55,132 nucleotides of DNA from an uncultured Clostridium sp. (lineage in GTDB: Bacteria > Bacillota_I > Bacilli_A > RF39 > UBA660). Below are positions 11,401 through 32,311 of this stretch, in pieces (within the stretch, counting starts at the first letter, position 1; every line of letters starts with the position of its first letter). The notes below the pieces were generated by a model. It was given only the letters and a program-made list of their open reading frames with translations, did not search any database and was not told the origin of the DNA. The stretch is from assembly GCA_964649245.1 (NCBI GenBank), contig CAZYOS010000002.1:1-55132 (forward strand), read 5' to 3'. The translations under genes and the position numbers were made by a program.

Positions 11401-12508
11401 CATATGAATTTTCGGATCCTACAATTGTTACATTTGCTTTTGGAGTATTCAATATAAAATTTTCTCCAACATTTAAACTTCCATATCCAGAAGCGTTAAT
11501 AGTAAGATTTCCAAGATTAGCAAATTCATACACTAAGTCCTGTGAAACATTTAAATTAAATCCATTAAGATCCAAGTTAACGCGCTTTGTTATATTTAAT
11601 GTACCAGACAAATTAATATTATCCATTAATCTAATAGTATCACCAGCAACTGCTGAATTAAGAATTTCTCTTAATTGAGTTTCGTTTTGAACATCAAGTA
11701 TTTGTCCTTCTCTATTCTCTGCAGTAATTACGCCAACTTGACTACTATATGCATTTAAATGAATAGATAGACTGCTATCGGAATATCTTCCAGTATTAAC
11801 TCCCGAATACATACCATAATCAAGTCTATATATTTTACTACTTTTAACATTTTCAACCGGAGCTGCAACAGTATCTATTTTCATTAAATTATTAAGCAAT
11901 GTCATATTTCTAACAGGTATAGCTGTATCATTTTCCATAGAAGCAGATGGTTGATGTGATGCTGCATAAGCTTCAAGTTTACTATCATATGTTCCTAAAA
12001 CAGTATCATTTACCGCACCAGTCACTTCATATAATCTATAATATAAAATTCCAGCAACTTGTGTTAAATCAGAAGATGGAGTAGAACTAGTAGATACTTC
12101 AATGTAATGGCCTTCTAAACTAAATGCTAATGAAAATTCCATATCTAAAGTACCAGTATTTTCAACTTCAATATATTTAGATCCTACTGTGATATTACTC
12201 ATATTAGTTTCATACATAATTGTTTGTACTTCATTATTATCAGATATTTCAATACCATCTTCATCATATTGCGTTATGTTATGTGAAATACGACCTGTAT
12301 TAAGTAAAGCCCCTGCTCCAGCAAATTCATCATATAGCCATGCAAATGACTCAGTTAAAATAAATGCTACAAATATGATAATAGCCAAAGATTTTCTAAT
12401 ATTCTTATTTTTCAATAATTCTTTAATATTATTAGATGCAAAAAAGTATTTTATATTTGTAAAACATTTATTTATTGCACTACTAATACTATGAATTATT
12501 TTTTTCAT
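5459..12508 (-). CDS. Giant (2,349 aa) surface adhesin: SipW-type signal, TasA/CalY-like N-domain, beta-helix-like segment, about five BspA-type LRR super-modules with Ig/CBM-like inserts
   Basis: The ATG at 12508 (MKKIIHS...) is preferred over the TTG at 12529 used by the ORF track. The signal ends ...AFILTESFAWLYDEF. The N-domain has TasA-like hallmarks (IEVENTGTLDMEFSLAF ... GRYSDSSLSIHLNAYSSQ). BspA/TpLRR-type repeats recur many times (IGNNAF/IGDYAF/IGESAF...L..I.LP..V). There is no LPXTG, SLH or choline-binding anchor. Confidence 0.8.
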   Translation of the reverse strand: MKKIIHSISSAINKCFTNIKYFFASNNIKELLKNKNIRKSLAIIIFVAFILTESFAWLYDEFAGAGALLNTGRISHNITQYDEDGIEISDNNEVQTIMYETNMSNITVGSKYIEVENTGTLDMEFSLAFSLEGHYIEVSTSSTPSSDLTQVAGILYYRLYEVTGAVNDTVLGTYDSKLEAYAASHQPSASMENDTAIPVRNMTLLNNLMKIDTVAAPVENVKSSKIYRLDYGMYSGVNTGRYSDSSLSIHLNAYSSQVGVITAENREGQILDVQNETQLREILNSAVAGDTIRLMDNINLSGTLNITKRVNLDLNGFNLNVSQDLVYEFANLGNLTINASGYGSLNVGENFILNTPKANVTIVGSENSYDVVVGGEFNVNVIQDGETDGLYLDSAHIVKSSTGLVPIDMIVDSNSRITIGPEVVVGNITAADGSTNIEVVNNGSVTQLDFSNMTLQETYTKAQIYVYNLGEIYGILGSYGILLPSNAAPYLAPNSGNTLIIKGITSGDITVGGSENFDIGDIQTNQDDISVVPIENELNSYIVYIKAAPDTLQGLLEAYFENQGSTTISQDIDNIEKLVIWTLNAQYFELEDFVYANSSAMSSLEYISLYNSRVTDGTTNNKIPNNAFLNKTTLKTVILPKTVTEIGNNAFSGVQLGAIPASTDDEFNFITIPSTVTTIGSAAFDSSIYVKFVSSVPPTLATNTFGTSARIFVPNGSISTYSNVQGISPEYLFISGNLDDDRRYFVFNTNTGLGISYVVNKYLSAAATTLGIPETITYQGSSKNVTEIGNNSFREMNIVNTSGVKLTLPDTITRIDPSAFYGLNLTAVEYFNNVTYIGDYAFYQTNLTGITANRATYIGNYAFYNTPIETIQLNNVITIDDYAFANSLNLYEASVGTLSVVGDYAFSNCPQMQRFYINNGNSLLVNNTEEIDLTVGTNAFFNNWGAYIDGRLRFYVPDATLASGKTVLSLYKEKFPDNANYIYITGIDVGSYQYMAVPYNLSNYTVRTVTVRDTNNASVTGYEIISYQGPDLTSNLPTYLTANGTTKDVVSIGEGAYQNTVVASGSEFNIESEKLINISKGAFYGFDIGHVVAAKVATIGESAFEGSTIHYGFFEKLKTLGTRAFYNCDELYRLKLGPVTEVGTLAAAETPNLTSVFFTNTLRNVNYASDAFENTGTNIANRFRMYVPDENNLLDFYRGIFTDLADYIYPTGTIIGHYTGAINYNIGLFSVREVTKQNASGSDVTDYEIIEYHGPDLNSSYVLPATVTLGTDALDISYFVNRAGLRDVSVAVTMTNTSDLEISAWEVDVVIDGGMYGETGAGVTAVNGTSVITFKNGNASIGKLAAGASKTVNFHIKSTTNGITDIEISSIRTTVPNATSHNVISIGENAYSHVATETGTTFDIESSNILYIGKNAFANNSGIRHVTLNNVVTIDNYAFSGSSITQGSFNNLNLLGTGVFRNTNNLYIMNFGKVQTMGANTITNAPYLYQVIFDSPSSPSLSIDANVFSNIGTSTENRQRFYVSNGVTTTNEEFVDVYKAHFPTQYQPYFYSYDDIVGSYIPSGLIDEIDIGDYSIKNTTINGNNGYEIVEYHGSTIDGSYQFPTLLDLNDRFLSSEVSYGTGWIEGSDYVKNVVIDITNNGTTATTAWRVTINMPNSGTISGISTDNNGAVISGNTAVLTSVTHNNIIQPGATYSLTIRVRHSISDLSVFITSISQNATSGIPVISIGDYAFGHASFDGTASYDISSDYLLNIGVSAFQNNTGIRNITANNCLYIKENAFNGASNLTAATFEGLYSIGESAFQNNANLIVINLGTVTSIAANAFLNDTNVARIIFNNTTYSSTINITIDPTAFSNCGTVIGSRLRVYVPSGTAGAMTMVEAYQEILPTELDPYVYETGIIQGSYTHNGYDIGAYSVKLANINGSTGWVLIEYHGADISSSYTIPSRIVIGEDDYFVRSIGERAYYLVNVVSGVNWNLTLPSTVVDVGDYAFYRRNVYSLSGSNLITIGAHSFEQSTTLRTITFNSVTYIEDYAFNGCTNLRTATLGTGVLSIGAYALYNSYATNNLTRININTQVPPQITETTLPARTPQSFFGYTWYTSYLYVYVPRGYTDAYSNDSLWGLQNIRQLGDTYQNFVYEIVDADVDYIKITGYLSSNNISVPDTFTISNVTYPVRQIETDAFDDVTNATTVTLGVNVMNVGNAFLSGNQYVTTINVNTNNLYFASSNGVLYSKDMETLIKVPNAKSLSGNTFTIPSTVKVIASGSFTGNTRLRRITIPSGIIAISERAFTSATNLTTVTFAGVVPPYLTGFEFLPNNAGLTINYPLDTANGNADNYANSVFYAWYLIDS

Positions 12509-12518
12509 AAAATCCTTT

Positions 12519-13397
12519 CTAATCTTCAATTATTATAATATCTGCCACTTTTTCACTATATTCTTTAATTTCATCAGATAGTTTTGAATTAATTAAAGTA
12601 TTTTCTAATCCTCTGCTAGGAGTAGAAACTTTCTTTTCCTCCTTATATTTCATTATTTCATTTCTTAAATCATCACTTATAATAGTTTTTTCAAGTTCAC
12701 GATCTATTTCTTCTTTAAACTCTCTACTATAAATTGTTTTTTCAAGTTCCTCATTTTTATTTTTAATTTCTACAACCATATTGTCTGGCTTTTTAGTTTT
12801 AAACAATGAGAATTTTTTCTTATTTTTGTTTTTATAATCATTTAACAATTGTATTTCTTCTGAAGTTAATCCATTTGGTTTAATTTCATGTTTAATATTT
12901 GATAACTGCTTTATTAAAATTATTATTAATGGAATAAATACTAGTATCACAAACCCAATTTTCGATCTAATAATTTTACTTACTAGACTTATTAAGAACA
13001 TTCTATAAACAAGTTTCCCATATATCTGACTTCCTTTTACTACGGGGTCTATCATATTTGTTACCGTTCCTTTAGTATAAAATAAATACTCACCTGTATC
13101 AGAAACATCAACTGTTTTAACCATATGTGTTACTGTTTTTCCTTTAAAATCTGATTCCAATCCTTGGTAAGTAACTATATCTCCTTCTTTTATTGTTTTA
13201 GGTTCAACCTTTTTAACAAGTATTACATCACCAACTTCCAAATTAGGTGACATAGAACTGGTCACAATTACGAATGTTCTGTATCCAAATATACCATCTT
13301 TTTTAAACACAAATTTTTGAGCCAATATAAAGACACATATCACTATTGATAATACAAATAATAAATTTTGAATAAAATTAAATATTTTTGTCTTCAT
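12519..13397 (-). CDS. sipW: Archaeal/ER-type signal peptidase I (SipW-like) paralog 1 with long charged C-terminal tail
   Basis: RBS AAAGGA. An N-terminal TM helix is followed by the Ser box VTSSMSPNLEVGDVILV and the His box KTVTHMV. A second TM helix is followed by a roughly 125-aa Lys/Glu-rich tail containing the repeat ELEKTI(Y/I)S. Box E is divergent (TKGTVTNMID instead of GDNN). Confidence 0.75.
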   Translation of the reverse strand: MKTKIFNFIQNLLFVLSIVICVFILAQKFVFKKDGIFGYRTFVIVTSSMSPNLEVGDVILVKKVEPKTIKEGDIVTYQGLESDFKGKTVTHMVKTVDVSDTGEYLFYTKGTVTNMIDPVVKGSQIYGKLVYRMFLISLVSKIIRSKIGFVILVFIPLIIILIKQLSNIKHEIKPNGLTSEEIQLLNDYKNKNKKKFSLFKTKKPDNMVVEIKNKNEELEKTIYSREFKEEIDRELEKTIISDDLRNEIMKYKEEKKVSTPSRGLENTLINSKLSDEIKEYSEKVADIIIIED

Positions 13398-13409: not shown

Positions 13410-13976
13410 CTATGGTTTCAAAAAATTAATATGCTCTATAGATAAACTTTTATCAGCAACCTCATTAGCAGCAGTTTTATCAATTGTAATATACCAATAT
13501 ATGCTTTTTGTTTCTAAAGGTTCTACTGTAAAATTATCAATAAATTTAAGTATTTTTTCACCACTTGTTGATTCTTCAATGTTTTCACCTAAATTAAGTT
13601 TTTTTATCATTGGAGAAGTAGTACCAAAATACATTTTAGGACTTAATGCTGATACATCACCAGTAATATCTGAAAAAACTATTGAAGTAGATGCTCTAGT
13701 GTTGCCATTATTTGTTATGTCTATTCTATATAATTTTGTATCATTAGGTGCCATATTAACAACGCTAAATATAGGAGTGGTAATTAATTGATAAGTTAAT
13801 GTTTCAGAATTATATTCATATAATTCAACATCAATATCTAATGTATTAATTATCAGGTCTCTATTATAATTAACAATTTCACCTTGAGAGGCAACAGTAA
13901 CCATCCATGCTACAGAAGCAGCTATTAATAAAATTGTTATTATTAAATTAAAATATGATTTTATATTTTCTTTCAT
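13410..13976 (-). CDS. Small TasA/CalY(camelysin)-like secreted protein, SipW-type signal
   Basis: The signal is ...LLIAASVAWMVTVASQ. Further hallmarks are NTLDIDV, YRIDITNNGNTRASTSIVF and the C-terminal ADKSLSIEHINF. Confidence 0.55.
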   Translation of the reverse strand: MKENIKSYFNLIITILLIAASVAWMVTVASQGEIVNYNRDLIINTLDIDVELYEYNSETLTYQLITTPIFSVVNMAPNDTKLYRIDITNNGNTRASTSIVFSDITGDVSALSPKMYFGTTSPMIKKLNLGENIEESTSGEKILKFIDNFTVEPLETKSIYWYITIDKTAANEVADKSLSIEHINFLKP

Positions 13977-13984
13977 ATTTACCC

Positions 13985-15058
13985 CTAGTTAAACACTACT
14001 GTTGTTACATAAGATTCAGGACTCACATTTGCAACTGCTGCATATCTTACATATACTGTTTGTCCTCTGGCAAATGTCATGGATGAATTGGTTACCGCAG
14101 TCCATGATGTTGAACTTGAACTCGTTGTATTATATTCCATAGAAGTATCTAAATTAGTTATAGTTAGTAATGAGTTGTTAGCATAAACGTTTGGAGCATC
14201 TCTTAATACATTAGCACTTCCGAATTTAATAGTAGCATCTATTGTTGATGAAGCAAGAATATTTGTACAATCAAGATCCCCTCCTTCAAGCCATATTTTA
14301 ACATTTACTTTTACAGTAGTATTTGCAGGAATAGTAAGAAGAATTTTATTTAAATCTATCGATGCATCATCACTGGTTCCTCTTCCGCCATTTTTTTCAT
14401 CAAATGTATATACAGTTTGATTCCCTATAAGATTGGAAGAAGTAGATGTATCAAAATAATCAAATTCACCGATTGCTCTTACTGCCCTTGTTGTATATGG
14501 TGCAGCTGTCGTTCCCTTTTCTGCAGTATCTCCAAATATATATAATACATCATAATTTTCATCTCTTATTGTAATTGCTACTCTAATTGCATCACTTGCA
14601 GCTCCGGAAATAGAAGTATCATTATGTAAGTACACATGTTTCGCATAATTTTCGGTTTGCAAGTAGAAATCATAATCAACACAACCATATTGTTCCATAT
14701 TTAAATGCCCATCTGCTTCAGGATTAATAAGTACATATTGAGGCATATTATTTGCAAGTCCAGCACCAAAATCTATTGTATAAAATGTTAAACCATCAAC
14801 ACTTGACATTTGTTTCAGTTCAAATAAACTGAAATCATTAAATATTTCTTCCAAATTAACAACAGTTCTTGCAGCACTATCAGGAGTTAGCCTAATTACC
14901 AAACCTTCAGCAGCACTAACCTTTATATTGTTCTGAGTAATACTAGGATTACTTTTATCAGAAAACCATGCATAAGAAGCAACAGACAAAAGAACTGCAA
15001 CTTCAACTATAGCAATTATTGTTGATGAAAATGTAGTTTTATGTTTTATTTCTTTCAT
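13985..15058 (-). CDS. Large TasA-superfamily-like secreted protein (W-x-EG-x-D-x-DC family), SipW-type signal
   Basis: RBS AAAGGAAAA. The signal is ...LLSVASYAWFSDKSN. The central motif is SDAIRVAITIRDE and the C-terminal motif is VKIWLEGGDLDCTNILASSTIDATIKFGS. Confidence 0.6.
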   Translation of the reverse strand: MKEIKHKTTFSSTIIAIVEVAVLLSVASYAWFSDKSNPSITQNNIKVSAAEGLVIRLTPDSAARTVVNLEEIFNDFSLFELKQMSSVDGLTFYTIDFGAGLANNMPQYVLINPEADGHLNMEQYGCVDYDFYLQTENYAKHVYLHNDTSISGAASDAIRVAITIRDENYDVLYIFGDTAEKGTTAAPYTTRAVRAIGEFDYFDTSTSSNLIGNQTVYTFDEKNGGRGTSDDASIDLNKILLTIPANTTVKVNVKIWLEGGDLDCTNILASSTIDATIKFGSANVLRDAPNVYANNSLLTITNLDTSMEYNTTSSSSTSWTAVTNSSMTFARGQTVYVRYAAVANVSPESYVTTVVFN

Positions 15059-15088
15059 AGTTTTCCTTTCTAATATTAATTTTAATAT

Positions 15089-16207
15089 CTAATATTCTAA
15101 TATCGTTTTACTTGATGCAAAATATTGCATGTTTTCACTTTTTCTTACATATACAATGTCTCCGGTTTCAAATGTAGGATTGTTGTTTTCATTGTAAGTA
15201 GTCCAATTTAAGCCATAATCACTTGAATACTCCATACCTTCAACATAGCCATCTATTGTATTTCCTGTTCCTACTAATACAACTGGTGCAACATTATCAA
15301 GCCCTTTATTTATTGCTGAAAATTGAAGATTCATTTTAAATAATCCTCCAGTTAATGCGGTCACATTATCTCTGTCATTTCCCTCAATCCATATCCTTAC
15401 TAATACTTTTCTTACACCTGCATTTTCGTTAATATCTGTAGTAGTTATTACAGGGTCTCCACATGCACTTTGATTGGCAGCTGACGCACATATTTCATCT
15501 TTGACATTTATTACATCTTCGATGGTAACTGGATTGTTAGCGGCCTCGATATATTTATAATCTTGTGGGTTTGTTGAATTTATATTAGCAGTACATGTCC
15601 CAGTACAACTAATTTCATAATTCTTATTAGGAGCCCAAACTAAACTAGCTTCCGAATTCATAACATATTCCCCATCAATCAATTCATTTTCTATAAATGC
15701 AATTCTAACTGATGATGCAATTAAGTCTCTACTAAAATCACCATCAATACTTATTCTTTCTACATCACTACCTAATAAGTCAGTAGACAAAGTGCCAACA
15801 GCAGGAGATACATATGATGAAGCATCTAGAAATATTGATGCATTAGCAGCCAATTTGAACATAAGACTAAATTCTAAATAATCGCTTGTACCATTAGCAG
15901 TAGTAAATGATACAGGAGTTCCATCATCTCTTTTATTTGAAGGAATGTACATATTAATTCCATTGCCTGTTATTTCGTGTTTAAATTCAAAATCACCAGG
16001 AAGATTTAATGCTGTTTCAGTAATCCATGTTTCTCCTGAATCAAGAGAAAGCAACAAGTTATAATGAGCATCAGCCCTTAATGTTACATCATTTGCTTTA
16101 ACTTCCTTATTATCAGTAAGCCATGCATAAGTAGCAACTAAAACAGTTACTATAATAAGTAATAATTCTAAACCAGCAATCCAAGTTTTCTTATGTGATT
16201 TAAACAT
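15089..16207 (-). CDS. Large TasA-superfamily-like secreted protein (W-x-EG-x-D family), SipW-type signal
   Basis: RBS AGGAG. The signal is ...VTVLVATYAWLTDNKE. Further motifs are SSVRIAFIENE, LVWAPNKNYE and the C-terminal VRIWIEGNDRDNVTALTGGLFKMNLQFSA. Confidence 0.6.
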   Translation of the reverse strand: MFKSHKKTWIAGLELLLIIVTVLVATYAWLTDNKEVKANDVTLRADAHYNLLLSLDSGETWITETALNLPGDFEFKHEITGNGINMYIPSNKRDDGTPVSFTTANGTSDYLEFSLMFKLAANASIFLDASSYVSPAVGTLSTDLLGSDVERISIDGDFSRDLIASSVRIAFIENELIDGEYVMNSEASLVWAPNKNYEISCTGTCTANINSTNPQDYKYIEAANNPVTIEDVINVKDEICASAANQSACGDPVITTTDINENAGVRKVLVRIWIEGNDRDNVTALTGGLFKMNLQFSAINKGLDNVAPVVLVGTGNTIDGYVEGMEYSSDYGLNWTTYNENNNPTFETGDIVYVRKSENMQYFASSKTILEY

Positions 16208-16215: not shown

Positions 16216-17325
16216 CTATTCTAAATTATTAGTTATTTTCAACATATCTTTTCTATATTTTTTAAAATATTTTTTAAATATAGCTTCAATTCTATTTTCT
16301 CTCTTAATTTTTTCTCCATAAGCAAGTTTAAATTCTTTATTAATAGATTTTTTAAATTTAAATTCATCTATTTCATCATTACTATCTACATAATCTTTTA
16401 TAGCTTTAGAAATAACATATTCACTATAAGATTTCTTTTTAGTTCCCTTATCCTCTTTTGAATTAAGAACTAAATAATCAATTAGGAAAGCCTGATCCAT
16501 GTTATCCTTAACTTCACCCGTAATATCATAATTATTATCTTCATTAACTTCTTCTTTAGCATTAACATTATATCTTTCAATAAATTCCCATAATTCTAAT
16601 GCCTTTTTGAAATCATTATTTTTAAGAATAACATTAGTTTTTCTTATTGGAGATTTAACAAATACTATATTAGCAGAAGCAAGTTCTTTAAAAAATGCAC
16701 TATGCATAAAGTCAGCAATTATCAATTGAATTTTTTCTAATCTTTGATCAACTGTTAAGCCGGAGCCATTTACCGTTAGATCCTCAAATACATTACTTTC
16801 CATATTCAAATTAATTTTAACTATTTCTTTACCAAGTTTAGTTTCAGAATTATAATTATATTGTTTATTAACATTTGAACTTGATCCACCAGTCATAAGC
16901 TCTTTTCTTTTAGCAATAAACATTGAAAGATTCATAAGTAGCGTATATATAAATCTATTTTCATATATATCATAACTTTCTTCTTTATTTATGTTTAATA
17001 CTTTAGAAGGTGTAATAGTATCTTCTACTGGATCATATTTTTGTATAAAATTTGTATGAGTAGCTAAATGTACAACACTCTCTTGTGTTAATTTTTTTGC
17101 CTTTTCAACATTAACTACCTCTTCTTCTTGCTGAATAAACTTTTTTGGATTTCTTACAATGTTATCTAAACTAGGAATACATTCCTCAATCTTATCAATC
17201 CAACTATAATCAAATTGAACTTTTTTTTGACTATCATGCATTAATAATTTAGAATTAGCATTATCGATAAACTCATTTTTTGTTTTTTCATCAGCTCTAT
17301 CAATTAATCTATTTATTTTTTCCAT
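16216..17325 (-). CDS. DUF2357 / McrC-N-terminal-like partner of the McrB-like GTPase (paralog 1); no nuclease motif seen by eye
   Basis: RBS AGGTGA, 7 nt after the upstream gene. It carries the motif YDIYENRFIYTL (compare the tpENRF motif of DUF2357 proteins) and SPIRKTNVILKNNDFKKALELWEFI. It is about 55-60% identical to the 26475-27569 product by eye. Confidence 0.5.
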   Translation of the reverse strand: MEKINRLIDRADEKTKNEFIDNANSKLLMHDSQKKVQFDYSWIDKIEECIPSLDNIVRNPKKFIQQEEEVVNVEKAKKLTQESVVHLATHTNFIQKYDPVEDTITPSKVLNINKEESYDIYENRFIYTLLMNLSMFIAKRKELMTGGSSSNVNKQYNYNSETKLGKEIVKINLNMESNVFEDLTVNGSGLTVDQRLEKIQLIIADFMHSAFFKELASANIVFVKSPIRKTNVILKNNDFKKALELWEFIERYNVNAKEEVNEDNNYDITGEVKDNMDQAFLIDYLVLNSKEDKGTKKKSYSEYVISKAIKDYVDSNDEIDEFKFKKSINKEFKLAYGEKIKRENRIEAIFKKYFKKYRKDMLKITNNLE

Positions 17326-17332
17326 AACTCAC

Positions 17333-18907
17333 CTACATTAATTTCTTAAGTCTTTCTAAATATGCTTTACATTCATTCATATTTTCTTTTCCAAACTCTG
17401 TATTTAAGTATGAAATATATCCATCAATTTCATCTCTAATAAATGAAAGATTTAATTGTTCAAATTTTCTTAATACTTTTTTACACAATATATAATCAAA
17501 TCCATCTATTTCTTTTCCACCACAGCCAACGTATACAGGAACGAATTCCTTAATATGTTTAACAATTCTGTTACCAAAAGCAAGTCTAAAGTGTTCAATA
17601 ACATAATCATCCATTTTTTCTAGTTTATCAAGAATTTCTTGACTAACTGGATGCTCAGCTTTAGCTTCATCAAATTTACTTTCAAGATATTTACTGCTTA
17701 TTTCTAATTGATCAGTAGGAGGAGCATCAAATGGCACACCTTTTTCATTTATATCTATTGGCATTGCACGGTCGTAAACCTTATCAGTTACCATAAATGT
17801 TGAATCATCATTATTTATTGTTCCAATATACCACATATTATCAGGTATCTTTAATTTACCTTTTTCTATTTTAATTGGATCATTTGGCCAAACATTAGGT
17901 ACTAGGTCTATAATCCACTCATCTCTACTAGGCATTTCAAGTATAGACAACATTTCTGCAAAATAATATTCAACACGAGCTATATTCATTTCATCTAAAA
18001 TTGTTAAATAAACTATATCTTTATATTTTGCTTCATACATTTTACTTAAAACTTCTGTTTCGTTAAACTTTTTAGTAAATTCGTTAAAGAATCCAAATAG
18101 TTCTGTCCTATCTCTCCATGATGGCTGTACTGAAGCAATTACTGCATCGTTTTTAGTAAATTTACCCCAAGCATATGGAAGAGAAGTTTTACCTGTACCA
18201 GAGATACCTTGTAAAATAACTAATCTAGTAGCACCTAAAGCTGATACAAATAGTCTAATAATATCAATTCTATAATATAATCTCATTTTTGAAGCAGAAA
18301 ACAATCTAAACTGTTCACATAATTCTTCAAGAGTAAATTTATTATTAAAGTTAGGTGGCTTATATCCCTCCATTGCAATATCAATTTGGGTAAGTTTATA
18401 GAATCTACTTTTTTCTCTATCAGCAGAACTAACAGCAGATTCTTCTTTCTTTTCACCAGTTCCAGCATTTTCTTTATCTTCAGCTACATTCTCAGGTAAT
18501 GCTTCTGTAGCACTTACTCCAGGTTGCAATCCAATTTGGCTTACTTTCATAGCAAGTATATCTTCTTTTTCTTGAGTTAATTTATAGACGGCTTGATTTA
18601 AATCACCTATTTCTTGTAATAATGATTCTTGCTCAACTAAAGTTTTTCTTATTCTTATATATTTTCTTACTAAAAGCACTATCATAAGTATTATCATTGC
18701 AAGTATTATTAAAAACACTAAAATAACTAATCCAACTACTACCCAAGCAGGACCAGATATTTCGCTTTTATATCCATTAACAATATTAAAATATGCTTTA
18801 AAATTAAACATATCATATAAACCTAATCCTATGTTTTTAAAGATTCTTATTAAACCATTAAAAAATTGGGACATAAAGTCAAATAGAAATCTTATAAAAA
18901 AATTCAT
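17333..18907 (-). CDS. Membrane-anchored McrB-family AAA+ GTPase (paralog 1), 524 aa
   Basis: The start is re-set to the ATG at 18907 (RBS AGGAG, downstream of the predicted promoter). An N-terminal Phe/Gly-rich amphipathic segment is followed by one TM helix (AWVVVGLVILVFLIILAMIILMIVLLV-RKYIRIRK, positive-inside) and a coiled coil. The AAA+ domain has Walker A LQGISGTGKTSL, Walker B/McrB motif ILDEMNIARVEYYFAEMLS and YIGTINNDDSTFMVTDKVYDRA (compare McrB MNTADRS..D.ALRRRF). Confidence 0.7.
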   Translation of the reverse strand: MNFFIRFLFDFMSQFFNGLIRIFKNIGLGLYDMFNFKAYFNIVNGYKSEISGPAWVVVGLVILVFLIILAMIILMIVLLVRKYIRIRKTLVEQESLLQEIGDLNQAVYKLTQEKEDILAMKVSQIGLQPGVSATEALPENVAEDKENAGTGEKKEESAVSSADREKSRFYKLTQIDIAMEGYKPPNFNNKFTLEELCEQFRLFSASKMRLYYRIDIIRLFVSALGATRLVILQGISGTGKTSLPYAWGKFTKNDAVIASVQPSWRDRTELFGFFNEFTKKFNETEVLSKMYEAKYKDIVYLTILDEMNIARVEYYFAEMLSILEMPSRDEWIIDLVPNVWPNDPIKIEKGKLKIPDNMWYIGTINNDDSTFMVTDKVYDRAMPIDINEKGVPFDAPPTDQLEISSKYLESKFDEAKAEHPVSQEILDKLEKMDDYVIEHFRLAFGNRIVKHIKEFVPVYVGCGGKEIDGFDYILCKKVLRKFEQLNLSFIRDEIDGYISYLNTEFGKENMNECKAYLERLKKLM

Positions 18908-18948
18908 AAAAATACTCCTATTATACCTATTATTCAGTATACATACTA

Positions 18949-18977
18949 AGTATATCATTATTCGACATTATTCTCAA
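18949..18977 (-). promoter_or_regulatory. SigmaA-like promoter with extended -10 (TTGAGA-17-TGaTATACT)
   Basis: The -35 TTGAGA is at 18977-18972, the spacer is 17 nt, and TGa plus TATACT is at 18957-18949. It lies just downstream of the sipW-2 terminator and upstream of the RBS/ATG at 18907. Confidence 0.45.
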
Positions 18978-19024
18978 CAAAAAAAATAGGTTTTTTATAG
19001 ATTTTAAGCAAAAAATCTTATCAT

Positions 19025-19054
19025 AAAAAAAGAAAATCAAGCAACTTGATTTTC
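19025..19054 (-). terminator. Intrinsic terminator straddling the sipW-2 stop codon
   Basis: On the minus strand the sequence reads GAAAATCAAG-TTG-CTTGATTTTC followed by TTTTTTTAT. The stem is a perfect 10-bp inverted repeat; with a 3-nt loop the innermost pair may stay open. Confidence 0.65.
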
Positions 19055-19621
19055 CCTCTTTATTTGTTCTATTAGCTCTCTCTTTTTTTCTTCCATTATA
19101 GTACTAATAAATTTATATATTTGATATATAAATAGTATAAACAATGGGAAGACAATGAATACAAAGAATCCTACTCTTCCTGATAAGAATGAGAATATAG
19201 TACCTAAAACAGGTATTCTTGTACCAGTGTACATGGATACTACTGAACTAGGAAATACATCTTCAGAATCGACTGTTGGATTATTATCTCCTTTTGTAGT
19301 ATAAGAAACAGATCCACCTAAATCATTAACAGCGGTAATACGGTGAGTTTTAATAATTAAATCCTTACCCTCATATCCAACAAAAGATATTACATCACCT
19401 TTGCTTAAATTATATGGATTTGCAACTGCTTTAGTAACTATCAAATCCCCCGTCATAATTGCTGGTTCCATTGAACCAGATTGAATGTTCATCAACATGT
19501 ATCCACCAACTTCAGGAAGACCCTTTTCATTAGTCTTTAATGAAGCAAATGTCATTACTACGGCAATTACAATGATAATTACCAAGAGAGTATTTCCTAA
19601 AACTGATAATACTTTTTTCAT
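19037..19621 (-). CDS. sipW: Archaeal/ER-type signal peptidase I (SipW-like) paralog 2
   Basis: RBS AGGTGA. It has an N-terminal TM helix, the Ser box QSGSMEPAIMTGDLIV, the His box IKTHRI, box E TKGDNNPTVD and a C-terminal TM helix. At 194 aa it matches B. subtilis SipW in size. Confidence 0.85.
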   Translation of the reverse strand: MKKVLSVLGNTLLVIIIVIAVVMTFASLKTNEKGLPEVGGYMLMNIQSGSMEPAIMTGDLIVTKAVANPYNLSKGDVISFVGYEGKDLIIKTHRITAVNDLGGSVSYTTKGDNNPTVDSEDVFPSSVVSMYTGTRIPVLGTIFSFLSGRVGFFVFIVFPLFILFIYQIYKFISTIMEEKKRELIEQIKRENQVA

Positions 19622-19641: not shown

Positions 19642-20742
19642 CTATGGTGTTGCTACTTTAGCATTTAAATTAATAGTAACTCCAACAGCAGTACCAAGTG
19701 TAGCTGTATTTTCACAGTCAACATCTTGTCCTTCTATCCAAATATAAACTCTTACTTTTGTAATACCTTGTGAAACTGTAACAACAGTAGGATATCCTGT
19801 AAGTGTACTACTATTCCAAGCAGTTGCACCAGTTAATGTTCCATCAGCAACAGTAGTTCCTTTATTAAAGTGTCCATTACTTGTTTCAGTTTGTATTAAA
19901 TTACCAACTCCACTTGTTTGAGATGGTGTAGCTAAGAAATTAGTAGTACTAGTTAAATCAACATTTGTTCCAACTGCAGTAGCACCCTTATAAGCTTTAG
20001 TTTGTCCAGCTGTTACATAACCTCTATTAATAGCAGTTGCAGTATGTGTATCAGCATTTGGTTCCCAAATTGAGTAAGCAGTATTTGTTGCTAATGCCCA
20101 AGCAGCTGTAGCACTTGAAGCATTACCAGAATTAATAAATCCTACTCTTATTGAACTTTTAAGTCCAGCGTCTTGTCCACCTTCGTTTATGCTTACAGTT
20201 GAAGTTGGAAGTAACCCTACCTCAACAGCATCTGGATTAGATGATTGAATAAAGATATCAAATGCAATAAAATATGCATTTGCAGCTTCAGTCCATGTTG
20301 CACTTCCAGCAACACAAGCAGAAGGAGTAGTGAATGTATTATCAGAACAACTTCCGTTTGTTTCGGTAGCGGCAGTTAAATTTATACTTCCATCTTCTTG
20401 TAATTGTCCATAATACATTTTAAATTTTCCAGAATCCATTGTTCCATCAGTAGATACTGGTTGTAAATAATCACCGACATTTCCTGTTATATTTGTAGCA
20501 TCAGGAAATTGTGTAACTGAACCAGTATAATAAGCATTTCTTATATGATCAGTTGTAAGTGTTGTTTTCCAATCGGTAGCATCAGTAGATACCTGAATAC
20601 CATTAGTAGCAGATACTTGAACATCAATTCTACCTAATTGAATCAATGTGTTAGCCGTAAACCATGCATAGGTTGCAGTTGATAAGGCAACACCCGTTAA
20701 TAATAGCATAGCAAATGCTATTATAATGTTTTTCTTTTTCAT
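19642..20742 (-). CDS. Large TasA-superfamily-like secreted protein (W-x-EG-x-D-x-DC family), SipW-type signal; candidate fibre subunit
   Basis: The signal is MKKKNIIIAFAMLLLTGVALSTATYAWFTAN. The protein is Thr/Ala/Gly/Ser-rich. Further motifs are SSIRVGFINS, YSIWEPNADTH and the C-terminal VRVYIWIEGQDVDCENTATLGTAVGVTINLNAK. sipW-2 follows directly. Confidence 0.6.
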   Translation of the reverse strand: MKKKNIIIAFAMLLLTGVALSTATYAWFTANTLIQLGRIDVQVSATNGIQVSTDATDWKTTLTTDHIRNAYYTGSVTQFPDATNITGNVGDYLQPVSTDGTMDSGKFKMYYGQLQEDGSINLTAATETNGSCSDNTFTTPSACVAGSATWTEAANAYFIAFDIFIQSSNPDAVEVGLLPTSTVSINEGGQDAGLKSSIRVGFINSGNASSATAAWALATNTAYSIWEPNADTHTATAINRGYVTAGQTKAYKGATAVGTNVDLTSTTNFLATPSQTSGVGNLIQTETSNGHFNKGTTVADGTLTGATAWNSSTLTGYPTVVTVSQGITKVRVYIWIEGQDVDCENTATLGTAVGVTINLNAKVATP

Positions 20743-20764: not shown

Positions 20765-21463
20765 TTATTTGTCTTCTGCTAAAGACAAAACCATTTTCAT
20801 TTCACCACCGAGTATGGCATCTACACATTCAAAGTCATTTCCTTCCATAAAAATAACTATTGTATATTTATCCACCTCATTAGGTATAATATTTTTCCTC
20901 TGTTTTACAAAAGCTTCGGTATTACTGGGAAAAGGTATGGTTCCTTCTTCCGTTTCACCAGTTCTTGCACTTTTTTTTGCATAAACCTCTTTTGGTTCAT
21001 CATTAGTGTACATGATGATTCGAATAGCATCATCTACATTCTTAATAACTGAAAGTATATCAAGCGACATTACATAATTAGTCGTTTCGGTACCTATATT
21101 TTTGACAAAGAATGTATAAGCCATATAATTATTTCCATTATGCTCACCTTCATAATCGGTAGCAATATTTAATGGAAGCCAACTCTCAGTTATATTGTCC
21201 ATATAATCTAAAGCAGTCGCTTCAAGTCTCAAAGGAGTTTCTTTAAAATCACTAGTGGCAGACATAACTATATGCTTATTAGCACTTAAGTTAGGATCTA
21301 AAGTAATTGTGAAATTTCCTTTTTGATTAACAACATAAAGTACACAATATAATGTTGATAAGAATAGTAATAAAAACAGAAAAATTATAAAACATACTCT
21401 TCCAAACATATTTCTTCTGTATACTTTCTTTGCTGTTGTATTAGCAAACAATTTATCTTTCAT
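20765..21463 (-). CDS. Membrane-anchored (uncleaved-type TM) member of the W-x-EG-x-D-x-C beta-sandwich family
   Basis: RBS GGAGG and an ATGA overlap with the upstream gene. The TM helix VCFIIFLFLLLFLSTLYCVLYVV lacks an AWF motif. Further motifs are YTFFVKNIGTETTNYVMSLDI, DDAIRIIMYT and the C-terminal IVIFMEGNDFECVDAILGGEMKMVLSLA. Confidence 0.55.
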   Translation of the reverse strand: MKDKLFANTTAKKVYRRNMFGRVCFIIFLFLLLFLSTLYCVLYVVNQKGNFTITLDPNLSANKHIVMSATSDFKETPLRLEATALDYMDNITESWLPLNIATDYEGEHNGNNYMAYTFFVKNIGTETTNYVMSLDILSVIKNVDDAIRIIMYTNDEPKEVYAKKSARTGETEEGTIPFPSNTEAFVKQRKNIIPNEVDKYTIVIFMEGNDFECVDAILGGEMKMVLSLAEDK

Positions 21464-22659
21464 TTCTTGTCCTCCGTAGATGCTATTGTATAATATTCAA
21501 TTTTATATTTAGATAATATATTCTTGTTAATAATATTTGTTACAATAGGTATCATCTTGTTATCAATTATTTCTGATAAACGTTTACCAAACATTTCATT
21601 TTTACTATAATTTATTAGTAAAAACTTAAAATCTCTAATATCTTTTAAATCAAAACCATTTTCGACATTTTTTTCACTAAATCTTATAGCTAAATTAATA
21701 TTATTATTTTTAATAATATCAATCATATCACTATATTTTTCAAGTGAATCCAAAGGAATAACTAAATATACATAATCTTTTATGTAATTTAACCTATTAA
21801 TTATATATTGAATATTAGTATTATTTGATATAAATCCAGTATTAATTTCAATAAATAATTTAATAGGATTATTAGTTAAAACTGACATGCCTAAGAATAA
21901 TGAACTTATCTCAATCTTAATTTTATTAAGACCAGTTTTAATAATTTCCCTATCACTTATCCTGTTAATTTCTTTCCTACTATCATCTTCAAACTCTTTA
22001 AAATTGTATTTAATATCACTTATACACATTTTTTCATTGTTAGCATTTTTAATTTTGCATAAACTTCCAACAAATTCAGAATATGTATTAAGACTATCTA
22101 AAAAATCAGAGTTCTTAATAATAGTTTTTTCAAATAACATCTTAATTAATTCAGACTTTCGATCTAATTTAATTAGCAATTCAACATCAACAAATTCCTT
22201 AAGATAATTAATAATGTCTTTGTTGATTTCGTCAAAAGATACTTTTTTGCTTTGCAATAACGCTTTATCATATTGTAAAGCAATATAAATAGTAGTGGCA
22301 ATGTCAATAACTGACTTTCTATACTTCAATTCATTTAAATCATTAGTGTTATTTTTTAAATCAAATAAAGTATCGACTTCAATTATACAAAAGCATATTT
22401 CTTGTAATTCTTTATTCCTAATATTTAATTTGTTAAATATATCGAATATTGAATTATTAGTTTCTTTTATATCATTATCAAAATCATACTTGTTAAACTT
22501 TTTAAGAATATAATAATTATATAATTTACTTTTAATGCTCTTGTTATTACTGATTTTACAGGGTAATATTATATCACATATACTAGTAATAAAATTTAAT
22601 CTAAATTTTATGTACTTATCAAGTATACTTCTACTGCCCTCAATATACCTAATCTTCAA
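21460..22659 (-). CDS. Cytoplasmic hypothetical protein, paralog of 29100-30242; the 5' end is problematic (TTG start, in-frame TAG just upstream)
   Basis: The ORF-track start is a TTG. An ATG with a strong RBS (GGAGG) lies at 22686 in the same frame but is separated by a TAG at 22665-22663. The protein shares an ILDKY N-terminal motif and a similar C-terminal region with the 380-aa paralog. Confidence 0.5.
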   Translation of the reverse strand: MKIRYIEGSRSILDKYIKFRLNFITSICDIILPCKISNNKSIKSKLYNYYILKKFNKYDFDNDIKETNNSIFDIFNKLNIRNKELQEICFCIIEVDTLFDLKNNTNDLNELKYRKSVIDIATTIYIALQYDKALLQSKKVSFDEINKDIINYLKEFVDVELLIKLDRKSELIKMLFEKTIIKNSDFLDSLNTYSEFVGSLCKIKNANNEKMCISDIKYNFKEFEDDSRKEINRISDREIIKTGLNKIKIEISSLFLGMSVLTNNPIKLFIEINTGFISNNTNIQYIINRLNYIKDYVYLVIPLDSLEKYSDMIDIIKNNNINLAIRFSEKNVENGFDLKDIRDFKFLLINYSKNEMFGKRLSEIIDNKMIPIVTNIINKNILSKYKIEYYTIASTEDKK

Positions 22660-22747: not shown

Positions 22748-22772
22748 AAAAAAAGTATAATATTTCATACTT
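22748..22772 (-). terminator. Weak AT-rich hairpin plus T-run after the coiled-coil gene
   Basis: On the minus strand AAGTAT-GAAATATT-ATACTT is followed by TTTTTTG. The stem is only 6 bp. Confidence 0.3.
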
Positions 22773-24378
22773 AATTATTTTTAATAATATACTTATTAAT
22801 ATACTTAACTACAACAGGATTAAGTTTAGCTATACTTGCATTATTAGAATTAATAATAACTTGGCATGAATCTATATAATCATCTATATTATCTTCATCA
22901 AGTTCAATATTAATATCTATTAATTTATATCTATCCGCTATTCTTAAAGCAACATCATCTTTTTTAACAAAATCAAATGTATTTATTATCTGAATGGTAG
23001 AAGAAGTAATCAGTGCATGAAAATCATCACAAATCTTTTTTCTTTCTTCTTTTGATAAATTAAGCTCATATTTATTAATACTATCGTTTAACACATATAC
23101 ACTATTTTTAAATAGTAAAAAATCATCTAAAATTGTATACGTTTTACTTATTATTGTAGATACTTTTTCTCTAAATAAACATAAATCATAATCCACAAAT
23201 CCATCTCTAATCAAACTTATTGATGCATTAAGGCTAGTATCAAGTTCATCTATTTTTTTTGCAAGTACATCAAGTTTCTTTTGTTTTTTCTTTTCTCCAA
23301 AAAATAATGAACTTTTTCTTCTTGTTAATCTTCCTCTTTCAATAGTAACTTTGCTAAGTTCAGAATATATTTTATTTTTATTATCAAGTTCCTTTTTTAA
23401 ATCATTACTTTTTGTTGTATATACTGTTTTGTATTCTTCCTTTTTATCTGCAATTTCACTAACTATGGATATTAAATATTTGAATTTTTCATAATATTTA
23501 TATTCCATTAAATTTTCTTTTAACTGAATAATATTATTTATAAAATCGATTTTATTACATGTTTCATACTTTTCTTCACTAATAAATTTTGTCACAGAAT
23601 CTTTATATAGAGAACTATCTTTATCTAGGCTATCTGCATCTATTTCACCATTTTTAATAGCATATAATATATTAATAGGATTTTGCGAATCATCAATACT
23701 CTTTTTAAGTATTAAGTCATTTAATTCTTTTCTAGCAAATGATTCATCTATTTTATTATCTTCAACATATTTTTCTTTTTTCTTTTTTAAAAATTCTGCT
23801 ATGCCTTCTTTTTTTACAAATATGATAATCTTAATATTTAATAAAATATCATTAAGCAAATCATGACTTGTCCAATATAATTGATCAAGTTTGTCCTTCA
23901 TAAGCAATAAATAATCTTCTTTTTCCCTTACTTCAAAAAATCTAATAATATATTCTTTAACAGGAGATGATACATTAAAATCATTAGGTGTCAATGGCAT
24001 TTCATAACTTTCAAATAAAGAAAATAATTTTCTTAATATAGTATTATATTCACCTAAATCTTCAGGATACTCTAAAGCATATAATAAAGTGCACAAATCG
24101 TAAAAAACATTTGTGCCACTATAATTATCAAGTATATGAAAGTATTCTTTTAAAATATTAATTCTTTCGGAACTCTCAGGTTTTTCTTCAATAGTGGGCA
24201 TATTGGATAATAATATATCTTTCAAATCATTTGTAAGAGATTCTTGTAAACTTGTTGCCTCACTTAAAAGAACTTTTAGTGCTTTAACATCTTTAATGTT
24301 TTCAGCTAAAAGTTTTTTACTTCTATCTTCCATTGAAGAGACAGTTGATTCAATTTTACTTAAATCACTTTTCTGCAT
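22771..24378 (-). CDS. Cytoplasmic coiled-coil-rich hypothetical protein (535 aa)
   Basis: Long ORF with an ATG start and no TM or signal. It is Lys/Glu/Leu-rich with heptad-like stretches. No family recognised. Confidence 0.6.
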   Translation of the reverse strand: MQKSDLSKIESTVSSMEDRSKKLLAENIKDVKALKVLLSEATSLQESLTNDLKDILLSNMPTIEEKPESSERINILKEYFHILDNYSGTNVFYDLCTLLYALEYPEDLGEYNTILRKLFSLFESYEMPLTPNDFNVSSPVKEYIIRFFEVREKEDYLLLMKDKLDQLYWTSHDLLNDILLNIKIIIFVKKEGIAEFLKKKKEKYVEDNKIDESFARKELNDLILKKSIDDSQNPINILYAIKNGEIDADSLDKDSSLYKDSVTKFISEEKYETCNKIDFINNIIQLKENLMEYKYYEKFKYLISIVSEIADKKEEYKTVYTTKSNDLKKELDNKNKIYSELSKVTIERGRLTRRKSSLFFGEKKKQKKLDVLAKKIDELDTSLNASISLIRDGFVDYDLCLFREKVSTIISKTYTILDDFLLFKNSVYVLNDSINKYELNLSKEERKKICDDFHALITSSTIQIINTFDFVKKDDVALRIADRYKLIDINIELDEDNIDDYIDSCQVIINSNNASIAKLNPVVVKYINKYIIKNN

Positions 24379-25041: not shown

Positions 25042-25062
25042 AAAAAAAGGAGTAAAACTCCT
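25042..25062 (-). terminator. Short hairpin plus T-run overlapping the stop of the 460-aa gene
   Basis: On the minus strand AGGAG-TTTTA-CTCCT is followed by TTTTTTTG. Confidence 0.4.
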
Positions 25063-26443: not shown

Positions 26444-26474
26444 TTTAACTCCTTTCATTTATTTCTGTATTTTA

Positions 26475-27569: not shown

Positions 27570-27586
27570 CTATTCCTCCAATAACT

Positions 27587-30310: not shown

Positions 30311-30330
30311 AAAGATAGTTGCCTATCTTT
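30311..30330 (-). terminator. AT-rich hairpin plus U-rich tail abutting the sipW-3 stop codon
   Basis: On the minus strand AAAGATAG-GCAA-CTATCTTT is followed by TATTTTAT. Confidence 0.4.
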
Positions 30331-30950
30331 TATATATTTCCATTTTTATTTCTTAAACTTAACATTTTATTTTTCAAAAGTAATAGTTTTAATATCTTAT
30401 AAATATCATAAGATATAATTGCAAGTGATGGTATCATAACAGCTATAATCCAGCCGCCCTTACTAGCTAAAAAGAACTGCAATCTTCCAAGTTGAGGAAA
30501 AACTGCTACCACTTTACCAACTACATTATCAGGAGATACTTTTTCATTATCTGCTTTTTGATTAGCATCTCCTTTAGTTTGAAAAACCAGTCCTCCTAAA
30601 TCAGGAACATTCAGTACATCTGCTACTCTATGCGTAATCGGAGTACCCCCAAAAAAATCATTTGTAGAAAAGAAAGTAATAACATCTCCTACTTTTATTT
30701 TAGAAGGATCATCTTGCCTATATGTTAACACTACATCATATACTGCTATATTCGGTGTCATACTTGGACTAATTATAGTATACAATCCAACTAGTGGCTT
30801 GTGTCCTTTTGCTTCTGCAGCCTTTCCTGATACGACATAAAATACAAGAAATAATCCTATTATAACTAAAAGCCCTACAATAAAGTATCCAACTGTTTTA
30901 GAAATAATATTTAGTATTTTTTTAATTTTTTCTTTTTTTGTTAGTTCCAT
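30330..30950 (-). CDS. sipW: Archaeal/ER-type signal peptidase I (SipW-like) paralog 3
   Basis: RBS AGGTGA. It has an N-terminal TM helix, the Ser box IISPSMTPNIAVYDVVL, the His box TPITHRV, box E TKGDANQKAD and a C-terminal TM helix. Confidence 0.8.
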   Translation of the reverse strand: MELTKKEKIKKILNIISKTVGYFIVGLLVIIGLFLVFYVVSGKAAEAKGHKPLVGLYTIISPSMTPNIAVYDVVLTYRQDDPSKIKVGDVITFFSTNDFFGGTPITHRVADVLNVPDLGGLVFQTKGDANQKADNEKVSPDNVVGKVVAVFPQLGRLQFFLASKGGWIIAVMIPSLAIISYDIYKILKLLLLKNKMLSLRNKNGNI

Positions 30951-30957
30951 AATTCAC

Positions 30958-31491: not shown

Positions 31492-31509
31492 TCTATCTCC
31501 ATATAATAT

Positions 31510-31538
31510 ATAATATCAAAAATAATATAATTATTCAA
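31510..31538 (-). promoter_or_regulatory. Possible internal promoter (TTGAAT-17-TGaTATTAT)
   Basis: Hexamers with a 17-nt spacer and an extended -10 TG lie between the terminator and the 177-aa gene. The AT-rich context and very short leader lower confidence. Confidence 0.3.
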
Positions 31539-31545
31539 TAAATAT

Positions 31546-32287: not shown

Positions 32288-32311
32288 AACTCTTCCTCCT
32301 TTACTATATTA

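Follow-up and report, generated by a model that had tools for sequence, protein, structure and literature searches.

McrBC is the textbook GTP-driven restriction motor, and the locus described here raises the question of what a pair of genes related to it does in the middle of an operon for surface fibres. The locus lies on a 55,132-nt stretch of DNA, below called the window, from an uncultured Clostridium sp. (contig CAZYOS010000002.1 of assembly GCA_964649245.1; GTDB lineage Bacteria; Bacillota_I; Bacilli_A; RF39; UBA660) with a G+C content of about 25%. Transcribed from the minus strand, a 524-aa McrB-like GTPase and a 369-aa McrC-like partner (pair 1) are encoded there among genes for SipW-type signal peptidases, TasA-like secreted proteins and a giant adhesin. 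We are highly confident that the pair is a McrBC derivative of the CoCoPALM type and not a restriction enzyme, and it probably has a direct role in the SipW-dependent biogenesis of the fibre or of the adhesin. The non-restriction function put forward in an initial annotation of this DNA is supported by the missing DNA reader, the missing nuclease and the embedding in fibre genes. Of the functional options named in that annotation, a motor or switch for fibre biogenesis is favoured and a membrane-acting defence function is the unlikely one. The two proteins of pair 1 are composed of the following parts:

17333..18907, minus strand: CoCoPALM GTPase of pair 1, a McrB-like AAA+ protein of the NxD branch, 524 aa (sequence and profile searches, AlphaFold2)
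18758..18907, minus strand: Phe/Gly-rich amphipathic N-terminal segment of the GTPase, residues 1-50 (three short helices in AlphaFold2)
18668..18754, minus strand: transmembrane helix of the GTPase, residues ~52-80 (Kyte-Doolittle scan of family members)
18536..18667, minus strand: juxtamembrane long helix of the GTPase, residues 81-124, the FtsB/FtsL-like 'coiled coil' (AlphaFold2)
18416..18535, minus strand: disordered acidic linker of the GTPase, residues 125-164 (predicted local distance difference test score, pLDDT; gap-rich in the alignment)
17336..18415, minus strand: AAA+ domain and helical lid of the GTPase, residues 165-524 (McrB matches, alignment)
16216..17325, minus strand: McrC-like partner without nuclease, pair 1, 369 aa (Pfam DUF2357)
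16576..17325, minus strand: extended DUF2357 or McrB-engaging module of the partner, residues 1-250 (invariant columns, hhalign, AlphaFold2)
16219..16575, minus strand: partner residues 251-369, one strand and helices (AlphaFold2 secondary structure)

All AAA+ motifs quoted in the initial annotation were found in the translation of the 524-aa open reading frame: Walker A LQGISGTGKTSL (GISGTGKT; G234-T241), Walker B ILDEMNIARVEYYFAEMLS (LDEMN; D305-E306) and YIGTINNDDSTFMVTDKVYDRA. The signature is N365-N-D367-D368, and R380 is the further residue of note. When PDB sequences were searched with phmmer, E. coli McrB was the sole match of the GTPase (E 2e-4), and it was also the sole match of a profile of the GTPase family (E 6e-6), which aligned from before Walker A to past the signature. 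NCBIfam McrB was the only ATPase model matched, with E 3e-4 for the pair 1 GTPase and 1e-7 for its paralogue in the window. Pfam gave no match in the pair 1 GTPase; among its relatives, 23 of 31 matched AAA_5 below threshold. No sequence match to MoxR or RavA was obtained with Pfam, NCBIfam or the phmmer and profile searches of the PDB. The AAA+ domain had been assigned to the McrB type and not to MoxR, and both these searches and the DUF2357 neighbour agree with this assignment.

One detail of that assignment required correction. In a survey of 150 family representatives, in about 120 of which the motif was detectable, the signature read N-x-D-(D/E)-S-T, with a free second position, an invariant D at the third position and D or E, occasionally G, A or Q, at the fourth. 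The element previously read as N-x-x-D is thus NxD(D/E) in the family as a whole, and the NNDD of the pair 1 copy fits either reading. The pattern 'NxD, usually followed by E or a second D' marks a major branch of the McrB-like GTPases (PMC11090510). In an ungapped alignment to E. coli McrB, whose register past the motif holds to within one residue, R380 corresponds to R348, and R337 and R349 are without counterpart. The homologue P0010 (646 aa) has an internal duplication of ~120 residues over the sensor-1/signature region and the lid, which may be a true tandem duplication or else an artefact of assembly.

The partner matched Pfam DUF2357 over residues 31-151 with E 1.8e-13, a match that passes the Pfam cut-off, and the YENRF motif is present in both partners of the window (SYDIYENRFIY in pair 1, TWDLYENRFIY in pair 2), as had been noted from the sequence. 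DUF2357 was recovered in 37 of 37 aligned partner homologues. The partner family comprises ~2500 clusters and has a constant length of ~370 aa.

A pair of this architecture was named CoCoPALM by Bell et al. (eLife 2024; PMC11090510) in one paragraph, the analysis being deferred to a later publication; the GTPase is described there as fused to an FtsB-homologous domain with transmembrane and coiled-coil helices (PMC11090510). The window locus is a new member of this named, uncharacterised class, whose architecture had therefore already been reported. Common to both are a GTPase of the NxD branch, a transmembrane and a long helix, an adjacent DUF2357 partner and nearby signal-peptidase genes. 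Long helices occur on both proteins of the window pair; the FtsB/FtsL homology of its GTPase is sub-threshold and heptads are not above shuffles, and nothing in the pair contradicts membership. A literature search returned no later paper on CoCoPALM, and the literature retrieved for SipW, TasA and McrB together consisted of strain genotypes only.

The McrBC complexes of E. coli and Thermococcus (6hz4, 6ut6, 6ut4) share with the window pair Walker A, Walker B, the sensor-1 Asn signature, one paired arginine, the DUF2357 stalk module and the two-gene order. The window pair differs from them in that the DNA reader is replaced by a transmembrane anchor, the signature is NxD and not NxxD, the PD-(D/E)xK nuclease of the partner is lost, and a fibre operon takes the place of defence or methylation genes. 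In McrBC, six McrB subunits assemble into a ring whose pore receives the DUF2357 stalk of McrC; the stalk repositions Nx(x)D and Walker B and thereby switches on GTP hydrolysis (PMC11090510).

The genes surrounding pair 1 are these:

18908..19060, minus strand: intergenic control region with hairpin, promoter-like element and AGGAG (folding and motif scan)
19037..19621, minus strand: SipW-type (archaeal/ER-type) signal peptidase I, 194 aa (NCBIfam SipW, TIGR02228)
19642..20742, minus strand: secreted TasA-like protein, 366 aa, N-terminal ATYAWF (N-terminal motif)
20765..21463, minus strand: 232-aa protein with a single transmembrane helix, companion of the TasA-like gene (conserved in other loci)
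13410..16207, minus strand: three secreted pilin-like genes, 372, 357 and 188 aa (ATYAWL and ASYAWF motifs)
12519..13397, minus strand: second SipW-type signal peptidase, 292 aa (TIGR02228)
5459..12529, minus strand: giant BspA-type leucine-rich repeat (LRR) surface protein, 2356 aa (Pfam LRR_5, CBM_2)

The close embedding of the pair in SipW, TasA-like and giant-adhesin genes that had been claimed is borne out by this arrangement. The partner starts 7 nt past the GTPase stop codon, 8 nt separate its end from the gene that follows, the gaps at the pilin-like genes downstream of it are 8, 30 and 8 nt, and the giant LRR gene overlaps the second sipW by 11 nt, so that spacings of 7-30 nt or overlaps prevail throughout from the GTPase to the giant adhesin. 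A scan of the window found no minus-strand terminator within this range. Upstream of the GTPase, a hairpin with a U-run covers the stop codon of the 194-aa sipW (~19026-19060; -13.9 kcal/mol, z -4.5) and is possibly a partial terminator between an upstream sub-operon and the GTPase sub-operon. The stem has 16 bp and is flanked by A- and U-runs. Past the hairpin, a promoter-like TTGAGA-17-TGnTATACT is located at 18977..18949. The initial annotation had given the pair its own promoter; hairpin and promoter-like element are indeed present, but promoter-like matches are no more frequent in this AT-rich window than in shuffles (110 found versus 103 expected). An internal promoter before the GTPase is therefore plausible and treated as unproven.

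With respect to the neighbouring proteins, the 194-aa SipW matched NCBIfam SipW with E 1.5e-37, and TIGR02228 was matched above cut-off by three SipW proteins of the window (E 2e-27 for 19037.., 1e-19 for 12519.. and 1.4e-25 for 30330..). Four window genes carry the N-terminal motif (A/S)(T/S)(Y/F)AW(F/L). A borderline match to Peptidase_M73, at 22.5 bits exactly at the cut-off, was obtained for one gene (31637..32287). The giant adhesin contains Pfam LRR_5 in 7 stretches (E 1.5e-91) and CBM_2 at residues 1641-1711. After a hydrophobic stretch, this 2356-aa protein reads TESFAWLYDE and thus has a TasA-like N-terminal motif (SFAWL). Because the motif is shared with the TasA-like genes, the adhesin may be a SipW substrate that is incorporated in the fibre or anchored with it. 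No Pfam or NCBIfam family was found in the 232-aa protein. As in the tapA-sipW-tasA operon of B. subtilis, sipW-calY of B. cereus and the bsa genes of C. perfringens (PMC11580942), SipW is encoded beside secreted subunits bearing the motif. Those Bacillus and Clostridium operons contain no dedicated NTPase, whereas in the window sipW and the subunit genes are separated by an inserted pair of McrBC origin and a giant LRR adhesin stands at the end.

The association holds beyond the window. At E ≤ 1e-5 the GTPase family comprised at least 8000 clusters, the best 120 of which were full-length and 56-85% identical. In a genome survey with one genome per species, relatives were confirmed in at least 574 species-level genomes; among the genomes listed, all carriers were metagenome-assembled genomes (MAGs) of uncultured gut, rumen or digester bacteria, with record titles naming Bacilli, Mycoplasmatota/Tenericutes, Clostridia and Erysipelotrichaceae, and in few cases Muribaculaceae or Acidaminococcus. 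Gene context was counted in 80 species-representative loci. In all 80, a DUF2357 partner was encoded 10-275 nt downstream of the GTPase in the same orientation, and in 73 a SipW-type peptidase was located at ≤ 5 kb from the pair, so that the link to SipW and surface proteins proposed for the window was seen across 80 species-level genomes. Five loci were without SipW, two of them on contigs of < 4 kb. At L043:12809-21115 and L061:12875-21160, a protein of ~2760 aa is encoded directly after the pair and no SipW was detectable within 10 kb, which suggests that the pair may be linked to giant surface proteins no less than to SipW.

An operon like that of the window and ending in a giant adhesin, in the order 232-aa protein, TasA-like protein, SipW, GTPase, partner, three pilin-like proteins, SipW and giant adhesin, was present at 10 of the 80 genome loci and also at the contig loci L001 and L002. 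Loci with a window-like operon include L003-L008, L010, L033, L045, L057 and L063, and the order of the three pilin-like genes after the partner is kept in L001-L008. The 232-aa gene was detected by tblastn at 41 loci and recurs together with the TasA-like gene in about half. Median identity to the window proteins was highest for the GTPase (60%), followed by the 232-aa protein (43%), the partner (38%), SipW (31%) and the TasA-like and pilin-like proteins (30%). By this measure the GTPase is the slowest-evolving gene of the cluster.

A scan of representatives with the AAA+ domain returned 7978 proteins at E ≤ 1e-3 and 733 at E ≤ 1e-30, which fell into three architectures: proteins of ~450-560 aa with one or two transmembrane helices, to which the window class belongs, proteins of ~550-700 aa with four or five transmembrane helices, and proteins of ~700-870 aa with soluble N-termini. 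Three relatives with four or five transmembrane helices (L084:10001-14359, L085:10001-14158, L086:10001-13272) are part of two-gene modules, and their downstream proteins have 488-837 aa and no Pfam match. The partner encoded at L086 is homologous to residues 16-250 of the window partner, YENRFI and PI..TN.L.K included (hhalign 95%). Based on this range, residues 1-250 of the partner form a shared module that engages the GTPase, and the C-terminal ~120 residues are specific to the class. The polytopic modules look like a wider family of membrane McrBC-like machines, of which we found no description. Likewise not found in print were the operon layout with TasA-like proteins and a giant BspA-type adhesin, the two paralogous pairs per genome, the dominance of the system in MAGs of uncultured gut and rumen Bacillota, the position of the GTPase as the most conserved gene of the cluster and the polytopic sister class.

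How a McrBC derivative might serve a fibre can be outlined as follows. The GTPase would form a hexameric ring under the membrane, held by six stalks consisting of the transmembrane segment and long helix, and the partner would be inserted in the pore of the ring as GTPase activator. Cycles of GTP hydrolysis would set the stalks in motion and, through them, the conserved N-terminal segment at the membrane, analogous to mechanotransmission by FtsEX and MacB, and this movement would gate or drive an extracellular step of fibre biogenesis. Candidate steps are the cleavage of membrane-held precursors by SipW, the ordered incorporation of subunits and giant adhesin, and the anchoring of the fibre base or the adhesin. 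The likeness to FtsEX/MacB-type ATPases is confined to the proposed logic; the folds are unrelated (ABC versus AAA+) and no homology is claimed. We regard this specific mechanism, which is drawn by analogy, as doubtful and rather unlikely to be correct. A more comprehensive version, in which the pair would be indispensable as the GTP-driven assembly or mechanotransmission machine of a lineage-wide class of TasA-like, SipW-dependent pili that giant BspA-type adhesins tip or anchor, and the polytopic modules would represent a broader, unrecognised family of membrane McrBC systems, is a tentative proposal and somewhat improbable.

The locus presents a McrBC core, i.e. a ring GTPase and a pore-plugging activator, that is devoid of its nucleic-acid parts and fixed in the fibre operons of hundreds of uncultured gut and rumen Bacillota. 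If the pair does act in fibre biogenesis, this would be a clear instance of cell-envelope machinery made from a defence motor. The assembly of TasA-type fibres, regarded as needing no energy, would gain an energy-dependent step, and the system would be the first NTPase-driven one of this fibre type. The carriers belong to abundant uncultured gut lineages, and their giant BspA-type adhesins are plausible colonisation factors. The operon anatomy and the conservation data make the function of CoCoPALM testable.

A number of observations weigh against a role in fibre biogenesis. To our knowledge, Bacillus TasA-type fibres assemble outside the cell without a dedicated NTPase, so that a need for energy would not be expected in advance. 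The label 'TasA-like', assigned from sequence, is founded on the N-terminal motif and the one borderline Peptidase_M73 match, and in the survey the strict pilin motif was present at 36 of the 80 loci, the others carrying variants such as AYASYESE. Contact of the N-terminal segment of the GTPase with extracytoplasmic SipW or pilins is speculative because charges do not settle the membrane side of this segment: net charge is +2 for residues 1-51 and +3 for the stretch past the transmembrane helix. Near the three polytopic modules no SipW or pilin genes were found, and the membrane McrBC core is therefore not inherently tied to pili. As judged by sequence matches, the annotated protein nearest to the GTPase domain is the candidate defence protein PDC-M26A. 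The fold alone cannot exclude MoxR, since a Foldseek search with the GTPase model returned McrB first (6hz4, E 2.2e-4), RavA with a near-equal value (E 3.2e-4) and then, closely, MCM and dynein. No published experiment on any member of the CoCoPALM class was found. The whole clade is nested within Type IV restriction-like systems (PMC11090510).

A docking of SipW on the helices of GTPase or partner through its C-terminal tail was considered as well and rejected, as long tails are rare. The 292-aa SipW of the window has a highly charged C-terminal extension of ~120 aa past its second transmembrane helix, which otherwise occurs in close relatives alone (L001, L008). Median tail length was 23-37 aa, and tails of ≥ 60 aa were present in 7 of 54 downstream and 25 of 71 upstream copies.

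The relationship to PDC-M26A and the ancestry of the clade lead to the alternative that survives best, a pilus-linked defence or abortive module. Such a module would monitor the fibre, a likely phage receptor, or the envelope, and would trigger arrest or membrane damage via the N-terminus of the GTPase; the McrBC core would thus have kept an immune role without DNA cleavage. The NxD branch is shared with CoCoNuT, whose members are treated as relatives of Type IV restriction systems (PMC11090510), and the conserved Phe/Gly-rich amphipathic N-terminus could act on a membrane. The PADLOC candidate model PDC-M26A was matched by the GTPase with E 2e-33; the match covers profile positions 313-435 of 724, which is the P-loop core, the N-terminal 300 positions of the model are unmatched, and the partner has no PADLOC match. 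Literature on PDC-M26 was not found. Polytopic relatives occur without pilus genes, and the module at L086 is located on its contig 136 nt downstream of TIR and Mrr_cat genes.

Compared with CoCoNuT in detail, the window pair has in common the NxD-branch GTPase, long helical or coiled-coil additions and a McrC homologue, which in CoCoNuT is often without active nuclease. CoCoNuT systems are soluble and always have another nuclease (HEPN or similar) nearby (PMC11090510), whereas none was found beside the window pair, which has a membrane anchor and a SipW/pilin context. Pfam, PADLOC and partner family scans revealed no effector domain in the two proteins, be it a nuclease, a HEPN or TIR domain or a pore-former. 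Defence genes are usually variable and patchy, but the GTPase is 57-70% identical over its full length across at least 80 species and its synteny is fixed in fibre operons. The family is nearly missing from viral contigs, where a single distant relative with 27% identity was found among 2.9 million. The context in the window is not that of a defence island, and the pair was duplicated along with a SipW and pilin set. Taken together, we consider the defence function unlikely and prefer a role in fibre biogenesis.

The N-terminal architecture of the GTPase bears on a second alternative. Here, the start codon has to be considered first. The long open reading frame (17333..18958, minus strand) has its first ATG at 18958, but the start at 18907 is the right one because all GTPase homologues start at the position matching it (MDxFIRFLYDF... 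in the alignment), AGGAG is located 7 nt before this ATG, and 18958 sits within the promoter-like element. Open reading frame coordinates, minus strand and start codon are thus the same as in the initial annotation. Residues 1-50 include 11 Phe and 4 Gly, and F16, G29, Y39 and Y46 are invariant in the family, as is G18 in 24 of the aligned sequences. A single strongly hydrophobic stretch, GPAWVVVGLVILVFLIILAMIILMIVLLV, extends over residues ~52-80 and is directly followed by RKYIRIRK, which favours a cytoplasmic location of the C-terminal side. The AlphaFold2 model of the GTPase (24 sequences, pLDDT 73.7) has three short helices in residues 1-45, one unbroken helix at 52-124, an acidic disordered linker at ~125-160 (pLDDT < 50 over 120-161) and the AAA+ domain with lid from ~165; the linker varies in length among homologues. 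Residue counts, hydrophobicity and AlphaFold2 therefore agree with the amphipathic Phe/Gly-rich N-terminus and the one transmembrane helix described previously. The absence of a DNA-reader domain also holds, since the predicted layout of residues 1-164 leaves no space for one, and no DNA-binding family was matched in Pfam and NCBIfam scans. For the coiled coil the outcome was mixed: a long helix is predicted at 52-124, but heptad periodicity is not above that of shuffles (124 of 500 reach the observed value). Since this crude test fails, the label goes back to the predicted long helix alone.

This helix region could mean that the pair is a positional or regulatory scaffold, in which an FtsB/FtsL-like region would target the division site or the poles and the GTPase would be a timer or switch without mechanical work, coupling the deployment of fibre or adhesin to the cell cycle or the nucleotide status. 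Bell et al. called the N-terminal region FtsB-homologous, and the low intrinsic turnover of McrB-type GTPases, activated by the partner in E. coli McrBC, suits a switch (PMC11090510). Matches to FtsL were obtained, although they are weak and below threshold (NCBIfam TIGR02209, E 0.031; Pfam FtsL_2 in 2 of 31 family members). FtsB has nothing that corresponds to the conserved first 50 residues of the GTPase, no division genes are present in the neighbourhood, and a role in structure or biogenesis is indicated by the strict membership of the pair in operons that encode structural fibre proteins. A scaffold of this kind is accordingly quite improbable.

A conventional McrBC-type restriction enzyme would need a cryptic or highly diverged nuclease in the C-terminus of the partner. 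The gene order, a McrB homologue followed by a DUF2357 protein, and the core motifs are as in McrBC, but the GTPase is membrane-anchored and has no DNA-binding domain, and the partner provided no sign of a nuclease. A family scan found PD-(D/E)xK in 0 of 37 partner homologues, and Pfam found no nuclease family in the partner. Invariant positions are concentrated between residues 39 and 136, where YENRF occupies 121-125. Another conserved block, V223-SPI-x-x-TN-x-ILK-235...K241...LW-246, contains SPIRKTNVILKN at 225-236. In the homologue alignment, acidic residues are nowhere invariant beyond residue 136, and a D...(D/E)xK pattern is absent. The AlphaFold2 model of the partner (pLDDT 80.6) has long beta hairpins at 24-38/63-72, 94-117 and 148-183; from residue 190 on it consists of helices and a single strand, with a terminal helix of 48 residues (321-368) for which a crude heptad test was not significant. 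According to this model, the C-terminus is not a PD-(D/E)xK alpha-beta-beta-beta-alpha-beta core. Foldseek against the PDB returned nothing for the partner at E ≤ 1e-3, neither a nuclease nor McrC, which was missed probably because the model is made of extended hairpins, and the profile of the partner family retrieved nothing relevant from PDB sequences. The cryptic fold whose search the initial annotation had recommended was thus not seen in this mostly helical region, and its statement that a PD-(D/E)xK triad is lacking is upheld by family scan, conservation pattern and predicted fold; the case for nuclease absence is made by these three negative results and not by a positive alternative fold. 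A restriction enzyme is very improbable.

Equally hard to maintain is the view that a chaperone-like ATPase of the MoxR/RavA type has been mistaken for McrB in the AAA+ domain: Foldseek ranks RavA nearly level with McrB and Pfam gives weak AAA_5 matches alone, but phmmer, family profile and NCBIfam retrieve McrB only, sensor 1 is followed by an invariant Nx(x)D, the gene that obligately accompanies the GTPase encodes a protein with DUF2357 (McrC N-terminal) and not a vWA protein, and Bell et al. place the architecture inside the McrB tree (PMC11090510), so that MoxR is excluded by sequence matches, signature and neighbour.

A second cluster with a paralogous pair is encoded further along the window:

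26475..29107, minus strand: pair 2, a 506-aa GTPase (27587..29107) and a 364-aa partner (26475..27569), same families as pair 1
30330..32287, minus strand: fibre genes of pair 2, SipW (30330..30950), a 177-aa secreted protein and a TasA/camelysin-like protein (31637..32287)

The two pairs are 56% identical in the GTPase and 38% in the partner. Each has its own SipW and set of secreted proteins, which suggests specificity of a pair for its fibre. The order in cluster 2 is TasA/camelysin-like protein (216 aa), 177-aa secreted protein, SipW (206 aa), 380-aa protein, GTPase (506 aa), partner (364 aa) and 465-aa protein; it is unlike that of cluster 1 and close to the commonest locus type elsewhere (e.g., L014). 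The 465-aa protein (25061..26458, minus strand) has a central transmembrane helix, Asp-rich DxDxDG-like repeats resembling calcium-binding sites and a beta-rich C-terminal region. It had no match in Pfam, NCBIfam or PADLOC and no homologue in 80 related loci.

Fast-evolving proteins without family match are encoded at 21460..22659 (399 aa), 29100..30242 (380 aa) and 22771..24378 (535 aa), all on the minus strand, and the 380-aa gene overlaps the start of the second GTPase by 8 nt. The idea that the 399- and 380-aa proteins represent a conserved third cytoplasmic subunit was not supported. Their mutual N-terminal match is weak (E 0.005), the positional counterpart at L014 is unrelated (E 3.8), and tblastn found them at 1 of 80 loci.

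The flanks of the window consist of chromosomal genes (AddAB, YfhO, LysM amidase, permeases). An AddA/AddB-type pair with UvrD-helicase and PDDEXK_1 domains at 48341..53738 (minus strand) indicates that the region is ordinary chromosome, and the encoded LysM amidase and D-Ala-D-Ala carboxypeptidase domain indicate a walled cell. Divergently oriented beside cluster 2, a full-length membrane protein of the YfhO family is encoded at 32267..34936 on the plus strand (E 8e-153). YfhO proteins are glycosyltransferases for envelope polymers, and a link of this protein to glycosylation of the fibre or the adhesin is possible.

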